This document shows positions 6,745 to 56,284 of a DNA stretch of 58,817 nt, piece after piece. Source of the DNA: Clostridiales bacterium (lineage in GTDB: Bacteria; Bacillota; Clostridia; Christensenellales; UBA1750); NCBI GenBank assembly GCA_015056005.1, contig SVHB01000004.1:1-58817 (forward strand), given 5' to 3'. The notes below the pieces were generated by a model that saw only the letters and a list, made by a program, of their open reading frames with translations, did no database searches and was not told the DNA's origin. Position numbers and translations under genes: made by a program. Within the stretch, counting starts at the first letter, position 1; each line of letters opens with the position of its first letter.

Positions 6745-8415
6745 ATGAAGAAACTTTCCAAGCTTCTTGTAGTGCTTCTGGCTATGGCTCTGGTCATGTG
6801 CGGCTGCGCAAGCGATACCGGTGATACCGGCACTGCTTCCGGCACCACTTCCGGTTCCTCCACTGGCACTACCACCGGCACCACTTCCGGTACCACCACC
6901 GGCACCACCGACGCAGGTACTGCCGATGCGTTCACCTATCCCATGGAACCCATCACCCTTTCCGTCAACATCGACGAAGTCGACCGTGAATCCATCCCGG
7001 ATTGGGCTCTTGAGTACTACATTTGGGACATCGTTGCCGAAAAGACCGGCGTTACCCTTGAGCGTGTAGGCGCTTCCGGTCAGGGCGGCGGCAACACCGA
7101 AGATATCGCTCTGATGATCGCTTCCGGCGAGCTTCCCGACATCTTCATCAACAACTGGCTCTCCTATCCCGGCGGCCCCGAAGCTGCTATCAAGCAGAAC
7201 CTGATCTTAAAGCTCAACGACATCTACACTCAGTATGCTCCCAACTATTCCAAGGTGCTTGCTGAGAACGAGCGCTGGGCTAAGGATACCGCTACCGACG
7301 ACGGCACCTATTACGTATTCCCCCTGCTGCGTGCAGCACGTGACCAGACCTTCTACGGCTTCGGCTATCGTCAGGATAAGCTCGACGAGTTCGGTCTCAC
7401 CGTTCCCACCACTCCCGATGAGCTCGAAAACGTTCTCCGCGTTTTCCAGCAGAACGGCGCTGAGTGCGGTCTGACCTTCGAATATCGCTTCCTGTTCACC
7501 GGTGAGCAGGGCTACGGCACCGACCTCCAGTCCGGTTTCGGTCTGAAGTCCGGCTTCTATGTAGACGAAGGCAAGGTTCATTTCGGCGAAGCTGAACCCG
7601 CTTACAAGGATTTCATCACCTGGATCAACAAGCTCTATACCGAAGGCCTGATCGACCCCGACATGCCCTCCATCGACAAGGCAACCTCTCTTGCTAAGTT
7701 CTCCAACGGCACTTCCTGGGCTGCTCTGATCATGTCCACCATCAACGTTGCAGAACCCGGTGAGATCAACGACGGTTGGGACACCGTTGGCGGTCCCGCT
7801 CTGGCAACCGCTAAGGGCGAAACTCCCCAGTTCGGTCACATGCAGAACTCCTACGCAGGCAACGCTTCCGCCGCTATCTCCACCGACTGCGAAAACGTTG
7901 AAGCAGCTGCCCGTTACCTTGACTGGTTCTACGGCGAAGACAACCTTGCTACCTATCAGCACGGCGTTGAAGGCTTTGCCTACGCTATCGTTGATGGCGA
8001 ATATACCCGTGCAATGGAACACCTCATCCCCATCGAGGGTGAAGGCGCTGACCAGGTAAAGACCCGTATGAGCTACTCTCATATCGGTACCAACTGGCCC
8101 ATGAAGATGCTCGACGGCATGAGCCACGATCTTGAGATGTATGATTCTCAGAAGCAGATCGGCGAAGCATGGCGTGCACACAACATGGCTGAGCACATCC
8201 TGCCTCCTGTAACCATGACTCAGGACGAAGCAAACGAATATGCAATGCTCTTCACCGACATCGATACCTACATGAGAGAGCAGATCGCCATGTTCATCAT
8301 CGGCACTCGTCCCATGACCGAATTTGACGACTTCCAGAACACTCTCAAGCAGCTGGGCGTAGATCGCGTTATCGAGATCCAGCAGGCCGCTTACGACCGT
8401 TATCTGGCTCGCTAA
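6745..8415 (+). CDS. extracellular solute-binding lipoprotein of the sugar ABC transporter (LplA type)
   Basis: 556 aa. Lipobox LVMCGCAS followed by a Thr/Gly/Ser-rich linker. Paralogue of 730..2355. Lies directly upstream of two permease genes. Confidence 0.9.
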   Translation: MKKLSKLLVVLLAMALVMCGCASDTGDTGTASGTTSGSSTGTTTGTTSGTTTGTTDAGTADAFTYPMEPITLSVNIDEVDRESIPDWALEYYIWDIVAEKTGVTLERVGASGQGGGNTEDIALMIASGELPDIFINNWLSYPGGPEAAIKQNLILKLNDIYTQYAPNYSKVLAENERWAKDTATDDGTYYVFPLLRAARDQTFYGFGYRQDKLDEFGLTVPTTPDELENVLRVFQQNGAECGLTFEYRFLFTGEQGYGTDLQSGFGLKSGFYVDEGKVHFGEAEPAYKDFITWINKLYTEGLIDPDMPSIDKATSLAKFSNGTSWAALIMSTINVAEPGEINDGWDTVGGPALATAKGETPQFGHMQNSYAGNASAAISTDCENVEAAARYLDWFYGEDNLATYQHGVEGFAYAIVDGEYTRAMEHLIPIEGEGADQVKTRMSYSHIGTNWPMKMLDGMSHDLEMYDSQKQIGEAWRAHNMAEHILPPVTMTQDEANEYAMLFTDIDTYMREQIAMFIIGTRPMTEFDDFQNTLKQLGVDRVIEIQQAAYDRYLAR

Positions 8416-11371: not shown

Positions 11372-12943
11372 TCAGTCGTCGCGTTCCTTTTCAAAATCGT
11401 AAACTGCGCCGGTCAGAGCGTCGACGTCGCAGCTGTATTCATAACCTCCGGACTTGAACTCTATCTCGTATACCTGCCTTCCGTCGTCCCTGTCGAGCTC
11501 GCACTCAACTCTGCCTGCCTCGGATGCATCGATACCGGCCTTTTTGAATGCTGAATCAAGCGCTTCCTCGCGGGAGATAAAGGCCGTGACGGGCTTTTCT
11601 GTCTCTTGAGCGGAAGGTGCCGGTGATCCGGGCTCTGTCGTCTTATGCGTGTTCGAATTGGGCACGGCTGTGGCCTGAGGTATAATATAGTCTGCCCTTT
11701 CGTGGGAGTACTTATAGACCTTGCCCGTGACCGCATCGATCTCGTATTCGTATTCCAGATGATCTTCTGTTATGAACTCGATATCGTATTCCAATCTTCC
11801 GTCATCGTGGTCGAGCTTGCATTTTGTAAAAGTGACCTGATCGGCTTTAAGTCCTGCGTGATCGATAACGACGGCTTTTGCTTCATCTGAAGTGAGCTTA
11901 GCATCGCTGATTGTATTTCCTTGGATGTAATTCTCCTCGTCCTTAGTCTGAACGGGTTGTACATAATCATCGTCGTACTCTCTGCGGGAGTTTATGACCT
12001 CGCCGGTTTTCGCGTCTATATCGTAATCATATTCATATTCGTTGTACCCGAACTCGACCTCGTATACCATTATGCCTTTTTCCAGATCCAGTTCGGCTTT
12101 GCTGTAGCGGATTTCAACGTTGATGCCCGCATGTGTCAAAGCAGCGTTTATCGCTGCGTCCCTGCCGATATAGGATTTATCGCTGGCGGTCCCCACGGAT
12201 TCGACTCCGTCCAGCCCGCTGCCCAGCAAATTCAGCTGATTGATGGAGAGCTGAGAAAGGTCTTTTTCGTCAAGCGCAGTGTTCTGCTTTGTCATCTGCG
12301 ATATAAGCTGGGCCTTGCCAAGGGATATATCGTACTGTTTTGCAAGGGTCTGCGTGTTTTCGTTATCTTTTATGGTCTGGCTGAGCACTGCTCCTGTGAA
12401 CGCATCCGTATCAAGCAGCTTGCTCACGTCTCCCGTGAGCTTCTCCTGCAGCTTGAGACCTCGCTCAATATCGTCGTTATCGACCGATATAAGGATCGAG
12501 TTTGCGATCTCCGAGATATAGCCGTTTTTGAGCATGGAGCCTATAAGCGCATTTACTGCTGCATCAAGGTCGCTGCCTTTGAGCTCCATATCGCCTATAA
12601 CGGTTTGGGCTTCGATGTTCAGGGGCTTGACCGAAAGCACTCTTTCGTTTTTGTTGATCTCTATCTCAAGGCTTGGGTTCACCTCAAATGCGATAAGGCT
12701 GTCGACTGCGTTTTGGACATACAGCCTGTTTGCTCCCATCAGGCCCACTGCGCAGATGATGAGCGCTGCGGCGGCCGAGATAAGCCTTCTTGTGATGTTC
12801 CTTTTCTTTGGCGTAAAGCTTACGACGTTTTTGCTGCCCTGAGCAATATCGGTCATGATGGGGCCCAATTCGTCGGGCGCGGCGTTTTTGAACGCCTTTT
12901 TGACTTTTTTGTTTATCTGATCGTAGTTTTCGTTCCTTTTCAT
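11372..12943 (-). CDS. anti-sigma factor, single-pass membrane protein with three PepSY-like repeats
   Basis: TM helix LISAAAALIICAVGLMGA. Repeats YEYDYDIDAKTGEVI, EYEYEIDAVTGKVY and YEYSCDVDALTGAVY. Start set at the second ATG (12943), which follows a GGGGA SD. It begins 4 nt after the sigma gene stop. Confidence 0.7.
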   Translation of the reverse strand: MKRNENYDQINKKVKKAFKNAAPDELGPIMTDIAQGSKNVVSFTPKKRNITRRLISAAAALIICAVGLMGANRLYVQNAVDSLIAFEVNPSLEIEINKNERVLSVKPLNIEAQTVIGDMELKGSDLDAAVNALIGSMLKNGYISEIANSILISVDNDDIERGLKLQEKLTGDVSKLLDTDAFTGAVLSQTIKDNENTQTLAKQYDISLGKAQLISQMTKQNTALDEKDLSQLSINQLNLLGSGLDGVESVGTASDKSYIGRDAAINAALTHAGINVEIRYSKAELDLEKGIMVYEVEFGYNEYEYDYDIDAKTGEVINSRREYDDDYVQPVQTKDEENYIQGNTISDAKLTSDEAKAVVIDHAGLKADQVTFTKCKLDHDDGRLEYDIEFITEDHLEYEYEIDAVTGKVYKYSHERADYIIPQATAVPNSNTHKTTEPGSPAPSAQETEKPVTAFISREEALDSAFKKAGIDASEAGRVECELDRDDGRQVYEIEFKSGGYEYSCDVDALTGAVYDFEKERDD

Positions 12944-12947
12944 TTTT

Positions 12948-13496
12948 TCATCCCCTTTCAAGCATATCGCGCAGCTTTTTGAGGGCGCGATGGTATTTGG
13001 AAAGCACTGTGGGCAGCGGCAGGTCCAGCATGCTCGCTATCTCCCTGTGCTTAAAGCCCGCGCTTGCGTGCAGTATCACTATCTCACGCTCTTGGTCGGT
13101 GAGCTTTTCCATGCAGAGCCTGATGATCGCCTCGTCCTGAGGCGTGACGGAATTGTTGCTCTCGATATAGTCTAACCAATCCTCAAAAGGCTCAGCCGTC
13201 TTTTTTCTTTCCCTTAGCTTCATCAGGCAAAGGTTTCGGGCGATAGCCATTATGTACGCCATGGGTCTTTTTTGCGCTTTGTATGAGGCAGCGGCACAGT
13301 GCAGGTTTACATATGTGTCGTGCAGTACGTCCTGTGCATCGTGTGCGTTTTTCAGCATTGAAAGTGCGAGCGCATACACCGCGCCGTGCGTTATTTCGTA
13401 AATATCTGCGATCGCCTGCATATCACCCTGCCGAAGCTCTTCCATCAGGCTTTCCAGCTTGTCAATGCTTTCGTATGTTAATGTCAAGAAAATCAT
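12948..13496 (-). CDS. ECF-type RNA polymerase sigma-70 family factor
   Basis: Region 2 (DVLHDTYVNL) and region 4 HTH (HREIASMLDLPLPTVLSKYHRALKKL). Start moved to ATG 13496, which follows the SD GGAAACGAAGG. Confidence 0.85.
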   Translation of the reverse strand: MIFLTLTYESIDKLESLMEELRQGDMQAIADIYEITHGAVYALALSMLKNAHDAQDVLHDTYVNLHCAAASYKAQKRPMAYIMAIARNLCLMKLRERKKTAEPFEDWLDYIESNNSVTPQDEAIIRLCMEKLTDQEREIVILHASAGFKHREIASMLDLPLPTVLSKYHRALKKLRDMLERG

Positions 13497-13565
13497 AGGC
13501 CTTCGTTTCCTTTCATAGAATAAATGCACGAACACACCGTTTTATTGCGCGAGGGGGAATATTTT

Positions 13566-14106
13566 TTATGCTTTTTTTGGGAGAAGGCTTTGCCTTCTCC
13601 CAAACCCATCAGCTATCAGGGGGGGATGTTCGAGATGGCTGCGCCCTCTCGAGCTCTGGGCCCAGAGGATTGCATCCTCTGGACTCCGCGGCTGTTTGGT
13701 TGAGTAATTGAATACGTTGGCTTACGCGTTGCCCGTAAAGTGTGGGCAACGCGTGATTGCTTTTAAGGACGGTTATGCGATGGAGGTTTGGACAGCCCAT
13801 CGTCCGTTTCTGTTTTGCGAGAGCAAATTCTAACAGGGTCAGAGTATTTTGCGTGCGCGGATTATGGGTATGTGAAATTTATGACGGCTGGAGAATTGGT
13901 TGGTTTAAAAAGAAGGAAAAGTCGTTTCGCGCACATATCGCACGCCGAAGGCGCATATCGCTCACCGAAGGGGAATATCGCTGCCCGAAGGGGAATATCG
14001 CTGCCCGAAGGGGAATATCGCTGCCCGAAGGGGAATATCGCTGCCCGAAGGGCAATATCGCTTCCGCGCAAGCGGAAATATCGCTGCACTGTAAGTGCAA
14101 TAATGC
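13566..14106 (+). repeat. mosaic hairpin element, locus R1 (one arm plus array cargo; boundaries approximate)
   Basis: hp1a GGGAGAAGGC/GCCTTCTCCC at 13579-13601. hp1b TCGAGA..TCTCGA at 13630-13652. pal2 CCAGAGGAT-TGC-ATCCTCTGG at 13662-13682. CCGCGGC box. hp3 GCGTTGCCC-GTAAAGTGT-GGGCAACGC at 13726-13752. GTATTTTGCGTGCGCGG box near 13843. ATATCGC-hairpin array at 13935-14106. Confidence 0.85.
13966..14065 (+). repeat. 20-nt tandem repeat inside R1
   Basis: CGAAGGGGAATATCGCTGCC occurs four times without change (13966-14045), followed by one diverged unit. Confidence 0.95.
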
Positions 14107-14111
14107 TTATC

Positions 14112-14138
14112 AAAAAAGGCGCTGCAAAACAGCGCCTT
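14112..14138 (-). terminator. rho-independent terminator of trpB
   Basis: AAGGCGCTG / CAGCGCCTT stem. On the minus strand it is followed by TTTTTT. Confidence 0.8.
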
Positions 14139-14150
14139 AAATATTTGGAA

Positions 14151-15371
14151 TTACCTCAGACCGAAGTTTTCAAGAACGTAGTCCATGTCCTTGTCGCCTC
14201 TGCCGGAGAGGTTGATGAGCACGGAGCCGTGTTCCATTTCCTTGGCAAGCTTCATGCCGTATGCGACTGCGTGAGAGCTCTCGATGGCGGGAATGATGCC
14301 CTCGAGCCTTGAGAGCTTGAAGAATGCGTCGATGGAATCGTTGTCGTCGATAACGTCGTACTTGACTCTGCCGATCTCCTGCAGGAAAGCATGCTCGGGA
14401 CCGGAGGAGGGATAATCAAGACCGGAAGCTACGGAATAAACGGGAGCGGGATCGCCGTTTTCGTCCTTGAGCATGATGGAATTGAAGCCGTGCATGATGC
14501 CCTCGGTGCCGTATTTGAGGGAGGCTGCGTGGTCGCCCAGCTTGGGACCGCGGCCGAGAGGTTCAATGCCGTAGATGTCAACGGGATCGTTCAGGAATCC
14601 TGCAAACAGACCCGCTGCGTTGGAGCCGCCGCCCACGCAGGCAACTATGGCGCTGGGCAGATGACCGGTCATATCGATGAACTGCTCCCTTGCTTCGATG
14701 CCGACAACGCTCTGGAAATCTCTTACCATCATGGGGAAGGGATGAGGACCAAGCACGGAGCCGATGCAGTAAATAGCGTCGTTGTATTCCTTGCTGTATG
14801 CGTCAAAAGCAGCGTCAACAGCTTCCTTGAGGGTCTTAAGGCCATGAGTTACCTCGACCACGTTTGCGCCGAGGATCTTCATCCTTGCAACATTGGGAGC
14901 CTGCTTTTTGATATCGACAGAGCCCATGTAAATATCGCATTCAAGGCCGAAATATGCAGCAGCGGTGGCAAGAGCTACGCCATGCTGACCTGCGCCGGTC
15001 TCTGCGATGACCTTCTTTTTGCCCATGTATTTTGCCAGCAGCGCTTCGCCCATGCAGTGGTTGAGCTTGTGCGCGCCGGAATGGTTCAGATCTTCGCGCT
15101 TGGCGTAAAGCTGTACCCTGCCGCCCAAAGCGTCGGAAAGCCTTTCCAGATGGGTAACGGGAGTGGGTCTGCCCTGGAATTCCTTCCTGATCCTTCTGAG
15201 CTCGGCGATGAACTTTCTGGACTGAGCGATGGAATAATATGCCTGAGTGATCTCTGCCATTGCAGCCTTGAGCTTGTCGTCAACGTATACGCCGCCGTAC
15301 TTGCCGAAGAAACCGTTTTTATCGGGATAATTGTTGAAATAAGTATCGAAATCTACGTTGTTGAACTTCAT
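14151..15371 (-). CDS. trpB: tryptophan synthase beta chain (stand-alone)
   Basis: 406 aa. FGKYGGVYV, the PLP-lysine motif HSGAHKLN, and GGGSNAAG. No trpA or other trp genes in the window. Confidence 0.9.
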
Positions 15372-15750
15372 TTTGTCTTCCTCCGAATGTGTTTTTGTCT
15401 TGCTTGGCGATGCTTTGATTCAATTTCGCCATCGCTTGGTCAAAAGTGCCATGTCTTCCTCCGAAAATAAAAAATCCCCGGCAGAGAATCCTTTGTTCTC
15501 TGTCAAGGACGAAACTTCTTTCGTGGTGCCACCTTGTTTACGGCAATAGCCGCGCTCTTTGATAGGATACCATCATATCCCCCGCAATTAACGTATGCGC
15601 TCACGTCGCAGAATACTCTGTAAATATTACATTTGACTGCGCCCTCGGCGGTCCATTTGATGACCTGTTTTTCGCCCGCTCTCAGCTAATCGGACTCTCT
15701 GTGGAAGCATGATCACCGTTATCTCCGCGTCAACGGTTTTCTGTTGAGTT
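15372..15750 (-). promoter_or_regulatory. T-box leader (tRNA-Trp-responsive candidate) controlling trpB
   Basis: The minus strand carries AGAGAG and the T-box sequence AAACAAGGTGGCACCACG (15522-15539). A terminator hairpin CAGAGAA/TTCTCTG follows, then GGGGATTTTTTATTTT. Candidate specifier UGG-A at 15653-15655. Confidence 0.8.
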
Positions 15751-15785: not shown

Positions 15786-15805
15786 GCTTTTGTATAAAAA
15801 TTCAT

Positions 15806-16366
15806 GGGGATGGGGAGACGTTTTTTGAGGAAGGGCTTTCAGCCCTCCCTCAAACTCCCTCCCGACCAAGGGATTGCATCCCTTGGAACCCGCGGCATTT
15901 TGGGATCAGGAATGTTATGCTTTTGCGTCGACGTGGCCGTAAAGGGTGGCCACGTCGAAAATAGCAAAGCGCTTATTCAAAAAGGGTCGGAGTATTTGAC
16001 CCAAAGCCTAACTCTCCTAAAAATAAATCATGCGTGACCCACGAGGCGGTCGTGCGGAGCGCGACCGCCAATGATATACGCCTTGCGGCGTGTGATGAAT
16101 GATATATTCCTGCGGAATATGATATATGCGCTGCGCGCACATGATGGTTAGTAACCACCCAACCGTCTAACTCTCCTAAAAATAATTCACGAGTGGCCCA
16201 TACCTGCCGGGCCACTCGTAAGCTGAAGTATGAAATTCCTCAATCCAAAAGCTGCGGGATCCAAGGGATGCAATCCCTTGGTGGATGAGGGTTTGGGAGA
16301 AGGCGAAGCCTTCTTCCAAGAAAGAGAGCTCGAGAGGGCGCAGCCATCTCGAACGTACCCCCAAAA
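15806..16366. repeat. mosaic hairpin element, locus R2 (composite of a forward partial copy and reverse copies)
   Basis: Forward arm: hp1 15827-15851, pal2 15866-15886, hp3 15930-15956. Reverse arm: hp3 16191-16217, pal2 16261-16281, hp1a 16295-16317, hp1b 16330-16352. ATGATAT-variant hairpin array at 16071-16146. A truncated hp3 half lies at 16032-16040. Confidence 0.85.
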
Positions 16367-17651: not shown

Positions 17652-17908
17652 TATGTTTTCCTCCTGAAAGAGTACCGGTCGGATAAAAAAAGATCCCCCG
17701 GCCATGATATTACATGGGACGGAAGATTCCGCGTTGCCACCCAAATTGCCGGCAGTATGCCGACCGCTCGTTTTTCGCTGTAAAGGGCGAACCCTCCGAC
17801 TCATCGCCGGCAGCTCGGAAAGCGGAAGCGAATGGGCTCAGCTCCGGCTCGCACCTTCCGCCGGCTCTCTTTGGCAAAACGCCCAACGCTGTTTTCGTCT
17901 GCGCTGTA
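17652..17908 (-). promoter_or_regulatory. T-box leader controlling serS
   Basis: Minus strand: AGAGAG, GGTG, and the T-box sequence AATTTGGGTGGCAACGCGG (17729-17747). A hairpin plus TCTTTTTT sits just before the SD. TATAAT at 17915-17920 lies upstream. Confidence 0.8.
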
Positions 17909-17944
17909 AACCATATTATACACGCTTTGCACAAATTTTTAAAG

Positions 17945-21165: not shown

Positions 21166-21862
21166 TCTCCTTTTTTGGGGGGGAGTACGTTCGAGAGGTT
21201 TCACCTCTCGAGCTCTCTGACCAAGGGTTTGCAACCCTTGGATCCCGCGGCTTTTTTATGAGTAATTGAATACGTTGGCTTACGCGTTGCCCGTAAAGTA
21301 TGGGCAACGCGTGATTTGTTTTTAGGAAGGTTATGCGGTAGAGATTTGGACGGTCAAGCGATCGCTTCTATTGTTTGTTTGAGGATGCTCATTATAAAGG
21401 CTCTCTCTTGAGGGGGTGACGCGTTAAGCAAACAGTCCGGTGGACTGTTTGCAGCCAAAGTCCGACGCGGGCTTGTTCCGCGGCGCGTCGCTGGCACGGG
21501 AACCGTGACTGATGAGGTGTCCCCCGCGTGCGCTTTTTCTTGGCATGCAGAAAAACGAACGTTATAGCGATATACTCGCTTCGCTCGTGCGATATGCGCC
21601 TTGCGGCGCGCGATATGTGCGCGAGAGGGCTTCTTTCCCTTGTTCAACTAACCGATTCTTCATCCGTCATAAATCTTACGAACGAATAATCCGCGCACAC
21701 AAAATACTTGTCTGTCGCATAAACTTCCACTATCGCATTTGCCGCGCACTTTCGCATAACATCCCGCAATCTCAAAAGCTGCGGGATCCAAGGGTTGCAA
21801 ACCCTTGGGCCCAGAGCTCGAGAGGGCGCAGCCATCTCGAACGTTCCTCCCCCACCGTCCTC
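21166..21862. repeat. mosaic hairpin element, locus R3 (inverted arms, composite cargo)
   Basis: Left arm: hp1 TCGAGAGG/CCTCTCGA 21191-21211, pal2 21221-21241, hp3 21284-21310. Cargo hairpins at 21428-21452, 21463-21490 and 21495-21507, followed by ACTGATGAGGTGTCCCCC at 21508-21525. Reverse ATATCGC array at 21567-21616. Right arm: pal2 21788-21808 and hp1b 21818-21840, with no hp3. Confidence 0.85.
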
Positions 21863-36808: not shown

Positions 36809-36896
36809 AATGCGGAGGTATATTCGCGTTGCGGGTTCAATGAACCCAAATCCGTTCCCCAAGAACTAACTTAATTGAAAAAGAGACTTGATTTAG

Positions 36897-37065
36897 GTGA
36901 AATATCCTTTGGATGTGAAATAATGACCTGCGGTCATTGTGAAATTTGATGCTTTGCATCAAGTGAAATGAAATAAATCCGCTCACGCCCGCATGCATTT
37001 CACACGCCGCAGGCGTATTTCACGCACGAAGTGCATTTCACAAATCCCGCAAGGGATTTATTTCG
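36897..37065. repeat. solo array of six small hairpins separated by GTGAAAT (left half) or ATTTCAC (right half)
   Basis: 7-mers at 36897, 36915, 36939 and 36963 (GTGAAAT) and at 36997, 37017 and 37035 (ATTTCAC). Hairpins at 36904-36914, 36922-36938, 36946-36962, 37004-37016, 37024-37034 and 37042-37059. Confidence 0.85.
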
Positions 37066-37068
37066 TTG

Positions 37069-37112
37069 AAAAGAAAAACCTTTTGCCCGATGGACAAAAG
37101 GTTTTTCTTTTC
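37069..37112. terminator. bidirectional rho-independent terminator (tRNA-Asn and XRE transcripts)
   Basis: 15-bp stem AAGAAAAACCTTTTG / CAAAAGGTTTTTCTT (37071-37109), T-rich on both strands. Confidence 0.8.
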
Positions 37113-37187
<75 letters not shown>

Positions 37188-44337: not shown

Positions 44338-44925
44338 GCTTTTTGTGGGGGTTTGTTTTTTGGGGAAGGGTTTCACCCTTCCCCAAACCCCATCTGACCA
44401 GAGGATTGCATCCTCTGGACTCCGCGGCATTTGGGATCAGGGAATTTAGGCTTTTGCGTCGACGTGGCCGTAAAGGGTGGCCACGTCGAGGATGGCTGAG
44501 TGCTTATTCAAACAGGGTCAAAGTATTTTGCGTGCGCGGATTCCTCGTTCGCGAAATTTATGACGGCTGAAGAATTGGTTACTCTGATAAGCCGCAAAAG
44601 CCCTCTCGCGCACATATCGCAGCCGAAGGCTATATCGCGCGCCGAAGGCGCATATCGCTGCGCCAAAGGCGCAATCTTTCCACGCCGGCATTGGCTGCCG
44701 CAGCATAACCCTCTTCCATATACCGCGAATCCCATCCCACTGCCTGACCCTCCTGAAAATAAATCACGAGGAACCCATACTTTACGGGTTCCTCGTAGGC
44801 TAACGTATAAAATTACTTGATCAAAAAGCCGCGGGATCCAAGGGTTGCAAACCCTTGGTCAGGTGGGTTTTAGGGAGGGCTGAAAGCCATCCCTAACGTC
44901 TCCCTAACGTCCCCCTCGTCTCCCC
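44338..44925. repeat. mosaic hairpin element, locus R4 (complete copy with both arms)
   Basis: Left arm: hp1 44362-44384, pal2 44398-44418, hp3 44461-44487. Cargo: GTATTTTGCGTGCGCGG box and ATATCGC array at 44614-44673. Right arm: hp3 44768-44794, pal2 44838-44858, hp1 44872-44894. Confidence 0.9.
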
Positions 44926-54361: not shown

Positions 54362-54950
54362 GAGGACGGGGGGACGATTTTTGGAAGAAGGCGTTGCCTT
54401 CTCCCAAACCCTCATCCACCAAGGGTTTGCAACCCTTGGAACCCGCGGCATTGGGAATGTATAATTTCATACGATAGCTTACGAGGAACCCGTAAAGTAT
54501 GGGTTCCTCGTGATTGTTTTTTTGGTTGTTAAGCAATCGTTCTGTAATACAACAGCAAATAATTGTGTGGACACCTCATCAGTCACGCCAAGCGTGACAG
54601 CTTCCCCTCAAGGGGAAGCCAAGAAAACCTCGTACTCAAACATTTACGGTTATGTAGAGCTTGTAAGTCTGCAAACGTATGAAACAACTGATATATCTCG
54701 GCTTCTCCTAGAGGAGAAGCTGTCGCCTTTAGGCGACTGATGAGGTGTCACCGCTTTTTATTTGCTGTTGTATAGCAGAACGGCTGCATAACTCTCCTGA
54801 AAATAAATCACGCGTGACCCATACTTTACGGGTCACGCGTAAACAAACGTATTTAATTTCCGCAGCCAAAAGCCGCGGGATCCAAGGGATGCAATCCCTT
54901 GGTCAGGTGGGTCTTAGGGAGGGGTGAAACCCATCCCTAAAAACGTCTTC
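54362..54950. repeat. mosaic hairpin element, locus R5 (complete copy with a different cargo)
   Basis: Left arm: hp1 54383-54405, pal2 54419-54439, hp3 54483-54509. Cargo: nested palindromic multi-hairpin domain at 54540-54780. Right arm: hp3 54812-54838, pal2 54882-54902, hp1 54916-54938. Confidence 0.9.
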
Positions 54951-54955
54951 CTCTA

Positions 54956-56284
54956 TTAAGCCTCTCTGCGCTTTGCGGTGGCTACGAGGGCCAGACCTGC
55001 CATCATGAGGACGGCTGCTGCGTAGTAGTGAGCATCAACACCGGTCTTGGGGATGGAGTTGCCGGAGGAAGATCCGGGCAGGCTGCCGCCGGGAACGGTG
55101 TAGTTGGGGTAGCTGGGATAAGTGGGAACAGAAGGAACGACGGGAGCGGGGTTGGAAACATAACCGCCGGTGGTCACGAATGCAACGGGATCGCCGTAAA
55201 CATAGCCATTGCCTGCAATGCCGACTGCGCGGACATAGTAAGCGGTGCCGGGCTTGAGACCGGTGACCTTGAGAGCGTAAGCGCCGTTAGCGTCGCTGCC
55301 CCAGAGGGTATCGCCCCAGTTGCCGTTAGCCTTGCGAACCTGGAAACCTGCCTTGGAGATGCCGTTGGAGGCAAAGCCGTTCAGGGTCGCGTTGGCAGAG
55401 GAGATGTTGGTGGGGTTGTTGGTAATTACATAGCTGTAATAAGTGGTGGGATAGTTGGGCACATAACCGTAACCGGGGATGTAATAACCATAACCGGGCA
55501 CATAGTAATAACCGTTGTAGTAATAGCCGTTACCGGGAACAACAACACCGGGAATAATGGTTTCGGGCTTCTCGTCGATTTGATCCTGAGTGATGGTGAA
55601 GGATCCGGTTGCGATCTGAGCGGGAGTTCTGCCATCAGAATAGTTGGCAATTGCCTTAAATTCATAGGTACCGGGGGTCATTTTACCAATGTTCATGGAA
55701 CCGGACCAAGTGTTTCCGCTCTTAGTGCCGGAAACGGAGTACATATTAAGACCGTTTACGGTATAGGTGAAAGTAACGCCGGTAATAGTAACAGGGTTAC
55801 CGTCCTTGACAGGAAGAGAGAAAGTGACCTTGCCGCCGCTTACAGAAGAAGAAACAGCACCGTCAACGGTAGGATCCTGACCATAGGCAACCTTGGTAGT
55901 AGCAGAGACTACAGAGTCATCAATGATGACGTTTCCACCAACACTGCACAGGCTCTTGAAGTAGTAAGTGGTATCAGCAGAAAGAGAAGAGATAGTTGCG
56001 CTGACAGTGCCGCCCGTTAAAGGATTGGAAGTATCTGCAGTAGCAATTCTAAATCCGGTTATACTGGACATATCGGGGGTGGTGCTATAGTAAACACTGA
56101 TAAATTCAACAGTCTCAGATGCTCCTACAGTGTACGGAACGCTGATGGTAGCGCTGGTATCTGTTACATTGGTAATAGAAGGAGCGCTGGTAGATGAAGT
56201 TGCCTGAGCCATCGCCGTAGCCGGGGCCATGAGGCAAAGGAGCATTGCAACAAGAGTGATGAGTGAAACAAAACGTTTGCTCAT
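54956..56284 (-). CDS. cell-wall-anchored surface protein with Fn3-like domains and an (I)PKTG sorting signal
   Basis: Signal peptide ...APATAMAQA. Two Fn3-like segments. Tyr/Gly-rich linker. C-terminal IPKTG, then a hydrophobic helix, then KRREA. Confidence 0.8.
   Translation of the reverse strand: MSKRFVSLITLVAMLLCLMAPATAMAQATSSTSAPSITNVTDTSATISVPYTVGASETVEFISVYYSTTPDMSSITGFRIATADTSNPLTGGTVSATISSLSADTTYYFKSLCSVGGNVIIDDSVVSATTKVAYGQDPTVDGAVSSSVSGGKVTFSLPVKDGNPVTITGVTFTYTVNGLNMYSVSGTKSGNTWSGSMNIGKMTPGTYEFKAIANYSDGRTPAQIATGSFTITQDQIDEKPETIIPGVVVPGNGYYYNGYYYVPGYGYYIPGYGYVPNYPTTYYSYVITNNPTNISSANATLNGFASNGISKAGFQVRKANGNWGDTLWGSDANGAYALKVTGLKPGTAYYVRAVGIAGNGYVYGDPVAFVTTGGYVSNPAPVVPSVPTYPSYPNYTVPGGSLPGSSSGNSIPKTGVDAHYYAAAVLMMAGLALVATAKRREA

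Follow-up and report, generated by a model that had tools for sequence, protein, structure and literature searches.

An expanded hairpin array beside a sigI-like gene of a Clostridiales bacterium is very probably a member of the Gut-1 RNA family

Here, we analyze a hairpin array, referred to as R1, in a 58,817-nt stretch of DNA from a Clostridiales bacterium (NCBI GenBank assembly GCA_015056005.1, contig SVHB01000004.1, positions 1 to 58,817; henceforth the window), the gene content of which is of the Firmicute or Clostridia type. R1 (13935-14106) lies between the terminator of a gene for a PALP-fold enzyme (14151-15371, minus strand) and the start of sigI, which codes for a SigI-like sigma factor (12948-13535, minus strand) and is followed by the gene for an RsgI-like anti-sigma factor (11372-12961, minus strand). 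A terminator scan placed the intrinsic terminator of the PALP gene at 14116-14138 on the minus strand, with TTTTTT after the hairpin on this strand and an A/T-rich run before it. Our data support that R1 is, with high probability, an element of the Gut-1 RNA family (Rfam RF01706) that was lengthened by slippage or unequal recombination.

On the plus strand, R1 consists of eight ATATCGC linkers starting at 13935, 13955, 13975, 13995, 14015, 14035, 14055 and 14078, each of which is followed by a palindromic unit of 13-16 nt. On the minus strand, the array reads hairpin-GCGAUAU eight times over, which is the sense in which Rfam describes Gut-1 and also the sense of the upstream PALP gene. An earlier note on this DNA, made from the sequence alone, had recognized the eight linkers, and all of them are present where it placed them. 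It had also described the units as self-complementary, which we correct in that units 1-5 of R1 each have one mismatch and the second unit of a related array, R3, pairs at only 4/6 positions. Specifically, units 1 and 2 are ACGCC-GAA-GGCGC and TCACC-GAA-GGGGA, units 3-5 are all TGCCC-GAA-GGGGA with one G.G mismatch, and units 6-8 are TGCCC-GAA-GGGCA, TTCCGC-GCAA-GCGGAA and TGCACT-GTA-AGTGCA. Tandem Repeats Finder reports R1 at 13945-14087 with a period of 20 and 7.0 copies. An exact period-20 tract at 13965-14052, comprising 4.4 copies of GAAGGGGAATATCGCTGCCC, contains the four identical 20-nt units (13966-14045) from which recent slippage had been proposed, and this proposal is supported by a strain with seven instead of eight units, to which we return below. 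Because the duplicated 20-mer spans from loop to loop, units 3-5 are chimeras.

The pairing of the stems goes far beyond expectation after removal of the tandem duplicates, and the reading of the earlier note thereby passes a refutation test that the note itself had proposed. When each of the 22 distinct units of the window is counted once, 96 of 106 possible Watson-Crick pairs are formed, compared to 31.4 +/- 4.6 pairs in shuffled units, with a maximum of 51 in 20,000 shuffles. By contrast, the raw count of ATATCGC in the window (56 vs 12 expected) is not evidence for a special function of this word because the excess is mostly a codon effect, i.e. GAT-ATC encodes the frequent pair Asp-Ile. 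CGATATC and ATATCGC are still among the commonest 7-mers with the arrays masked, and GATATC outside the arrays is in frame 0 (Asp-Ile) in 51/64 cases. The most over-represented hexamers of the window, CGATAT/ATATCG (5.7-fold) and GATATC (4.7-fold), reflect the same codon-pair effect. We therefore rejected the idea that ATATCGC is a genome-wide word of the uptake-sequence or Chi type, its over-representation being explained by Asp-Ile codon pairs. In other words, the signal is the periodic arrangement of ATATCGC and not the number of 7-mers.

To place R1, we scanned the window with all Rfam families. The covariance model of Gut-1, for which the Rfam gathering threshold (GA) is 50 bits, matches 14010-14086 on the minus strand with 51.0 bits, marginally over GA, and the remaining part of R1 (13930-14003, minus strand) with 38.3 bits, below GA. 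The same model identifies a canonical mirrored element at 36895-37068 that consists of a GTGAAAT arm (36895-36974, plus strand, the weaker match), a centre, and an ATTTCAC arm, i.e. GTGAAAT on the minus strand (36992-37068, 76.6 bits). Two further arrays, R2 (16069-16130, plus strand, 45.3 bits) and R4 (44627-44697, minus strand, 30.4 bits), are matched below GA. The linker is GCGAUAU in R1, GUGAUAU in R2 and GUGAAAU in the canonical consensus hairpin-GUGAAAU-hairpin, and R1 has the Gut-1 layout of at least three adjacent short hairpins joined by a G(U/C)GA(A/U)AU linker. Moreover, linkers of the GUGAUAU and of the GCGAUAU kind are already present in the published Gut-1 seed alignment, as are mirrored arms and, upstream, terminators or a tRNA (PMC2864571). 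Gut-1 was described on the basis of 43 representatives, from human gut metagenomes only, and was judged to be a real RNA that is probably not cis-regulatory; no function was given (Weinberg et al. 2010, PMC2864571). We found no later paper on Gut-1.

Thus, the layout of R1 is not new. The earlier note had considered it an unfamiliar one, and it is indeed not that of a clustered regularly interspaced short palindromic repeat (CRISPR) locus, an iteron set or a classical repetitive extragenic palindromic (REP) sequence, but it is known as RF01706, the GA of which R1 reaches. R1 is a new member of the family from animal-gut Clostridia with an unusual, expanded arm of eight units and a lineage-specific partner segment of 95 nt. 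The elements studied here share with Gut-1 the consecutive short covarying hairpins, the linkers, the occurrence in gut metagenomes, the position after gene or tRNA terminators and the mirrored arms. They differ in that R1 has eight units as opposed to 3-4 and GCGAUAU as the linker throughout, in that a conserved segment of ~95 nt adjoins R1 where canonical elements have their second arm, and in that R2, R4 and half of R1 score below threshold. Because no function is known for the family, membership in itself explains little.

In total, the window contains five arrays and three copies of the conserved ~95-nt segment. The earlier note had described R2-R4 in addition to R1, and these are as it described them, including R3 in reverse and R2 in reverse with the linker changed to ATATCAT (16071-16146), while it had missed both the canonical element at 36895-37068 and the conserved segment. 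R4 (44614-44673), between the end of an esterase gene and the start of a hypothetical gene, has three linkers and the units AGCCGAAGGCT, GCGCCGAAGGCGC and TGCGCCAAAGGCGCA. R3 (21567-21616), located past the end of the aspartate kinase gene and ahead of trmK, has ATATCGC on the minus strand with three linkers and two units, one of them the imperfect unit mentioned above. R2 (16070-16146), which separates the end of serS from the PALP gene leader, has (G/A)TGATAT linkers on the plus strand, i.e. ATATCAT on the minus strand, and is followed by a degenerate remnant of the conserved segment. The canonical element directly follows the terminator (37070-37110) of a tRNA-Asn gene (37113-37187, minus strand). 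All genes flanking R1-R4 are on the minus strand, and the PALP gene and serS each lie behind a T-box-like leader (15502-15742 and 17712-17910, both minus strand; 85.6 and 78.2 bits, with an Rfam gathering score of 93).

In R1, R3 and R4, the conserved segment stands in place of the second arm. The R1 copy (13841-13934) abuts the array as a "leader" on the plus strand, the R4 copy (44520-44613) adjoins R4, and the R3 copy (21617-21710) adjoins R3 in minus-strand orientation. The segment is closed by the invariant complement GTGCGCG...CGCGCAC, and on the strand that reads GCGATAT all three copies contain ATTTCAC or ATTTCGC together with GAACGA-type motifs, which resemble the first hairpin of the second arm in two metagenomic copies, L017 and L047. 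Based on these short similarities, the R1 type appears to be a derivative in which the second arm has degenerated. A small open reading frame (ORF) starting at an ATG at 13881, within the segment, was rejected as a coding sequence because the R3 copy stops after eight codons, its frame is disrupted by the 20-nt period, and it lacks a Shine-Dalgarno sequence.

The same grammar also recurs outside the window. A metagenome scan for three ATATCGC 7-mers 11-16 nt apart mostly returned unrelated tandem repeats, but also 13 contigs with the true grammar, and scans of IMG/VR added ~20 more. A scan of GTDB representative genomes with a pattern for the conserved segment returned one true copy, in L002, a Clostridia metagenome-assembled genome from goat colon, and one chance coding match; GenBank phages gave no match to either element type. 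DNA sequencing runs carrying the R1 locus come from faeces and gut metagenomes, including sheep gut. From ~20 complete copies, we deduced an architecture in which a terminator-type hairpin precedes a first arm, and a centre joins this arm to what is usually a mirrored second arm. In GTGAAAT-type elements, the terminator hairpin (A-run, stem, T-run) follows the CCA encoded by tRNA genes at a distance of 0-2 nt, and this was seen for at least seven different tRNAs; the contigs with such a junction of tRNA-CCA, terminator and element, all from IMG/VR, include L271, L299, L356, L359, L364, L384 and L385. The stem may belong to the element rather than to the tRNA gene because the same stem trails three different tRNAs. 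The terminator at 14116-14138 has the position of this hairpin ("hp0"), which precedes the first arm in the related elements. The first arm starts 2-3 nt past the T-run and comprises hairpin 1 (AAATCC..GGATTT), hairpins 2 and 3 and hairpin 4 (GCC..GGC), with GYGAWAT between them, and in the second arm the linkers are inverted (ATWTCRC). The order GYGAWAT then ATWTCRC was observed in ~20 cases and the reversed order once (L050).

Pairing in these elements is conserved by compensatory change: in 11 non-redundant first arms, 7/16 consensus pairs show double compensatory changes. The centre carries, just before AT(A/T)TC, a copy of the 3' half of the first hairpin, which was also observed in L105. 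This copy co-varies with the hairpin, reading GGATTT in L017, GGAATGC in L047 and L099, GGAATTT in L142 and GGGATT(G) in L204; the match is 6/7 positions in the window copy (36970-36996) and in L299. For the outermost hairpin of the second arm, no such copy exists. The co-variation hints at a pairing, either long-range or alternative, that has no counterpart in the Rfam model. The minimum-free-energy folds of mirrored elements pair the two arms (z about -5). In such folds, the linkers of the two arms could conceivably pair with one another and form a ladder of junctions; however, invariant linkers do not allow this ladder to be tested by covariation, and it cannot form in copies with a single arm, such as R1.

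In contigs of phages, arrays lie among structural genes. In L204 (4980-10210), the order is terminase large subunit, array, P22-like portal, array, a gene of unknown function, capsid, and mirrored array with hairpin; the arrays start 27-29 nt past stop codons, and one of them is followed by the Shine-Dalgarno sequence AAAGGAGG and an ATG. In L339 (1480-3000 and 4290-4370), an SPP1-type portal gene is followed by an array, a scaffold gene, an element with first and second arm, and a P22-type coat gene, and the TGA stop codon of the portal gene sits inside the first GTGAAAT linker. If these genes form the usual single late operon, the arrays would be transcribed in the GYGAWAU sense within late mRNAs. 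More generally, the elements have a polarity relative to the 3' ends of genes and terminators. Out of 16 informative cases, R2 and R3 among them, the first arm in its GYGAWAT sense comes after a gene, tRNA or terminator of the same direction in about 13, and in a partly overlapping phage set it is co-directional 8:1, with a T-run immediately upstream in 14/18. Rfam orients the family in the same way, and in this orientation the linker contributes an additional U.G closing pair.

The elements are present in many copies and differ between strains. Contigs aligned to R1 inform on copy number only, as depth, and they break inside repeats; their depth is ~5 over the unique sigI flank, 50-120 over the conserved segment and ~316 over the first unit. 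Because this depth is far above that of the unique flank, the elements are multi-copy in the community. Consistently, L017, L047, L105, L204 and L339 each have 3-5 near-identical copies on a single contig of 4-12 kb. Among contigs encoding an identical PALP protein, two R1 alleles exist. L003 and L004 have the eight units of the window, and L005 and L006 have seven, namely GCGCC..GGCGC, TCCCC..GGGGA, TGCCC..GGGGA, TCCCC..GGAGA, TGCCC..GGGCA and the last two, with chimeras other than those of the window, as well as a strongly diverged conserved segment within identical flanks. Compared to 11372-13560 of the window, L005 (2371-2960) and L006 also lack the sigI-like gene, as well as the 5' portion of the gene for the RsgI-like protein, and this deletion ends in a mosaic of hairpin repeats next to R1. 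R3 is identical in six other metagenome contigs. In the 48 ORFs flanking arrays on 22 contigs, we found no recurrent protein family, no transposase including RAYT (Y1/HUH transposase), and no linked gene for a DNA-binding protein.

Several known systems share features with these arrays. CRISPR arrays and the RNA repeats of type III toxin-antitoxin systems (ToxI) share with them a regular period of tandem units, the ability of these units to form hairpins, and perhaps processing at a constant sequence. CRISPR loci consist of identical repeats of 23-50 nt and unique spacers of similar length, usually with cas genes; here, only 7 nt are constant, the variable parts are palindromes with a length of 9-19 nt, and the copies, which are dispersed, have no adjacent cas gene. 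We rejected this candidate, and ToxI as well, given that the units differ from one another and no endoribonuclease toxin gene lies beside any of the five loci. Arm sites of a phage attachment site (attP) were rejected on anatomy and context. A more general possibility is an array of binding sites in double-stranded DNA, i.e. iterons, a centromere or arm-type sites, in which a protein would read the 7-mer every ~20 bp with a switch of orientation at the centre. The spacing of about two helical turns, the direct repeats that invert around a centre, and the frequent place beside tRNA genes in contigs called as viral, which recalls partition or integrase arm sites, would fit such a system. However, this model needs no covarying palindromic spacers and explains neither the compensatory changes in the stems nor the loop signature described below. 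Iterons and partition-site repeats occupy one replicon-specific locus beside rep or par genes, whereas the copies here are many and dispersed, including between phage structural genes, and we found no rep or par neighbour. We regard this explanation as very improbable.

The closest parallels are with two families of intergenic repeats. REP sequences and the bacterial interspersed mosaic elements (BIMEs) that they form in enterobacteria are palindromes that occur in large numbers outside genes, both at the 3' ends of genes and between cistrons, form mosaic clusters, and have roles in mRNA 3'-end stabilization, termination and gyrase binding. In REPs, the palindrome is conserved and neighbouring copies alternate in orientation, whereas here the linker is conserved, the stems vary and the repeats are direct; also, the arrays lack the GTAG motif. 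The pneumococcal BOX elements, boxA-(boxB)n-boxC, are modular, with a middle module that varies in copy number by locus and strain, are transcribed and structured, encode no mobility gene, and affect neighbouring genes. They resemble the elements described here as modular intergenic repeats with a copy-number-variable middle module, but there is no sequence similarity, and boxB units are 45 nt long and alike, as opposed to 20-nt units with differing stems.

As our preferred reading, we tentatively suggest that R1 and its relatives may be cis-acting structural repeats at transcript ends, similar to REP/BIME or BOX elements. The array is very probably the hairpin arm of a modular, multi-copy intergenic repeat of gut Clostridia and their phages, made of short, G+C-clamped hairpins with stems that vary and yet remain paired, and of a fixed 7-mer, GYGAWAU on the gene strand and ATWTCRC on the other. 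In the suggested model, the element would act in cis and in single-stranded form, the most probable form being RNA that is part of read-through or intercistronic transcripts. The stack of hairpins just past the end of a gene would constitute a barrier or a handle that protects or processes the 3' end or stops read-through and, as REP/BIME or BOX elements do, would insulate neighbouring units, with the exposed 7-mers as a possible recognition or cleavage site. The length of the array drifts by slippage or unequal recombination between units.

Several observations speak against this model. Folded as minus-strand RNA, R1 is not more stable than its shuffles (z = +0.4). The recent expansion of R1 yielded mismatched stems, and selection on each single hairpin is therefore not strict. 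Little sense RNA would be expected to reach an array that lies behind a good terminator. RNA-sequencing runs were searched with R1, with the 10-kb stretch from R1 to R3 and with locus L017, and no matching run was obtained. While the GYGAWAT sense matches the direction of the upstream gene in R1 and R4, the orientation of R2 and R3 is opposite to that of their flanking genes. Finally, the loops point to the other strand. The earlier note had remarked that at least one loop is of the GNRA type, and this is right in spirit, as GNA and GNNA loops with a C-G closing pair strongly predominate on the ATATCGC strand. In 60 distinct units with perfect stems, the closing pair on this strand is C-G in 53, triloops are GNA in 23/38 and TNC in 1, and tetraloops are GNNA in 12/17 (7 of them GNRA) and TNNC in none; together, C-GNA-G or C-GNNA-G loops account for 35/55 as opposed to one complement. 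This is the strand opposite to the Rfam orientation. Thus, the polarity and the phage operon context, which follow the Gut-1 sense, and the loops, which follow the opposite strand, disagree.

An independent small RNA (sRNA) on the ATATCGC/ATTTCAC strand would account for the loops. Such an RNA would originate from the centre or the conserved segment, traverse the arm and stop at the bidirectional terminator beside it, and its GNRA- or GNA-capped hairpins would display 3-8 single-stranded 7-mers that titrate an RNA-binding protein or a complementary RNA, as in a CsrB-type sponge. Besides the loop asymmetry and the C-G closure, the units are slightly more stable on this strand (14:3, RNA parameters), and the terminator-type hairpin next to the arm could, with its A-run, stem and T-run, terminate transcription from both sides; on the plus strand, R1 ends at such a hairpin. 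The polarity relative to genes does not distinguish this explanation from the transcript-end model, as it is equally expected if RNA from the ATATCGC strand converges on the bidirectional terminator of a gene. However, no consistent promoter was found: a sigma-70 scan around R1 found none, and matches recognized by eye in the centres, an extended -10-like TGATATAAA/TGAAATAAA and TTGATG-17-TGAAAT, vary by element type and were dropped as evidence. In addition, R3 and R4 have no U-tract terminator in that direction, and dozens of copies per genome, with copies in phage structural operons, would be unusual for the gene of a trans-acting sRNA. We therefore consider an sRNA unlikely. Mismatches gave no signal as a test of the strand (G.U vs A.C, 7:6), and the nearest-neighbour energies of the units differ little between the strands; these differences are small because the models lack a bonus for GNA triloops.

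The loops also resemble those of mini-hairpin DNA. The GCGNAGC/GCGNNAGC mini-hairpin is extraordinarily stable as DNA, with a melting temperature (Tm) of 76.5 C, and far less so as RNA, with a Tm of 39 C for r(GCGAAAGC), and the motif occurs in priming signals such as ssiA with CCGAAGG (review PMC13037366). Similarly, the units have C-G closure and GNA or GNNA loops and contain CCGAAGG, GCGAAGC and GCGCAAGC cores, but mini-hairpin DNA is a thermodynamic motif, not a genetic element. We found no description in the literature of mini-hairpin arrays with fixed linkers. Conceivably, the elements act at the level of DNA, with units that extrude as hairpins or cruciforms in single-stranded or supercoiled DNA and serve as priming, topoisomerase or recombination sites or as targets of a spreading HUH-type enzyme, similar to the REP/RAYT system. 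The DNA-stable GCGNAGC/GCGNNAGC signature in 35/55 loops fits this idea, as do the multi-copy, mosaic and intergenic nature of the elements and the near identity of copies within a contig. Moreover, a location just past strongly transcribed genes and tRNAs resembles that of gyrase-binding BIMEs, and mirrored arms would offer the GNA strand to a fork or bubble from either side. Nonetheless, the 48 flanking ORFs include neither a transposase nor a recurrent gene, the stems vary from unit to unit, while REP-type recognition uses a conserved palindrome, and nearest-neighbour DNA energies differ little between the strands. Also, with the co-orientation of genes and replication that is usual in Firmicutes, the GNA strand would mostly be the leading-strand template and rarely single-stranded. 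Overall, we doubt that a DNA-level function is the explanation.

Lastly, the elements could be neutral, selfish repeats that persist and expand by slippage and gene conversion in tolerant places after terminators and that have no function for the host. Rapid gain and loss of units, chimeric units with mismatches, the exchange of one allele of the conserved segment for another while the flanks stay identical between strains, and the "safe" location past terminators are all as expected for such repeats. The intergenic regions of the window are, moreover, mosaics of further repeated hairpin modules in both orientations, with the modules GGGGAAGGG..CCCTTCCCC, CTCGAGAGGGCGCAGCC.., CCAGAGGATTGCATCCTCTGG, GTCGACGTGGCC..GGCCACGTCGAC and CGCGTTGCCC..GGGCAACGCG at 13560-13800, 15800-15970, 16240-16360, 21290-21360, 21770-21850, 44340-44500 and 44820-44900, and contig depth over them is up to ~100x that of unique flank (up to 630). 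By contrast, compensatory changes keep the stems paired across distant contigs; the 7-mer, the C-G closure, the loop class, the order of hairpins and the order of arms are conserved across many genomes and phages; and compact phage operons retain 3-5 copies. Accordingly, we find a purely selfish origin distinctly improbable. Other repeats in the window are a conserved terminator tail, in which a hairpin is followed by TGATTTATTTTTAGGAG on the strand of the gene that is ended, in six places (16014-16034, 16173-16193, 44750-44770, 54794-54814, and, on the minus strand, 21308-21328 and 13750-13770); the terminators with this tail seem to be members of a repeat family themselves. Tandem Repeats Finder additionally reports a 12/36-nt repeat, CCGGCACCACTT, inside an ORF (6826-6909), an 11-nt repeat, TCCCTAACGTC, near R4 (44890-44924), and 15/21-nt repeats (55463-55531).

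Gut-1 has been an orphan motif since 2010, previously reported from human-gut metagenomes only and described in a single sentence. Our analysis places it in animal-gut Clostridia and in phage morphogenesis operons, reveals it as modular, mirrored and multi-copy, and ties it to terminators and the 3' ends of tRNAs. The mirrored architecture, the co-variation of first hairpin and centre, the association with tRNA terminators, the copies in phage operons, the polymorphism in unit number and the paradox between a gene-sense polarity and loops that are stable on the antisense strand may all be new for this family; none of them reveals its function. Bolder still, and rather doubtful in our view, is the speculation that Gut-1 elements are mirrored cassettes of ~200-250 nt, each with its own terminator, first arm, co-varying centre and second arm, that trail tRNA operons, genes and phage late genes. 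Their structured strand would be the one opposite to that in Rfam, with C-GNA-G mini-hairpins, and they would represent a new class of mobile insulators or terminators, or of DNA hairpins, rather than an sRNA, with the R1 type as a lineage-specific derivative with a variable number of repeats.

These observations give rise to testable hypotheses in which the element is a barrier at RNA ends, a sponge RNA or a DNA mini-hairpin element. Should read-through or mRNA stability be modulated by the element, the number of units would create differences in gene expression between strains of abundant gut bacteria. Should it instead be no more than a selfish repeat, it would still be a useful marker for recombination and strain typing.

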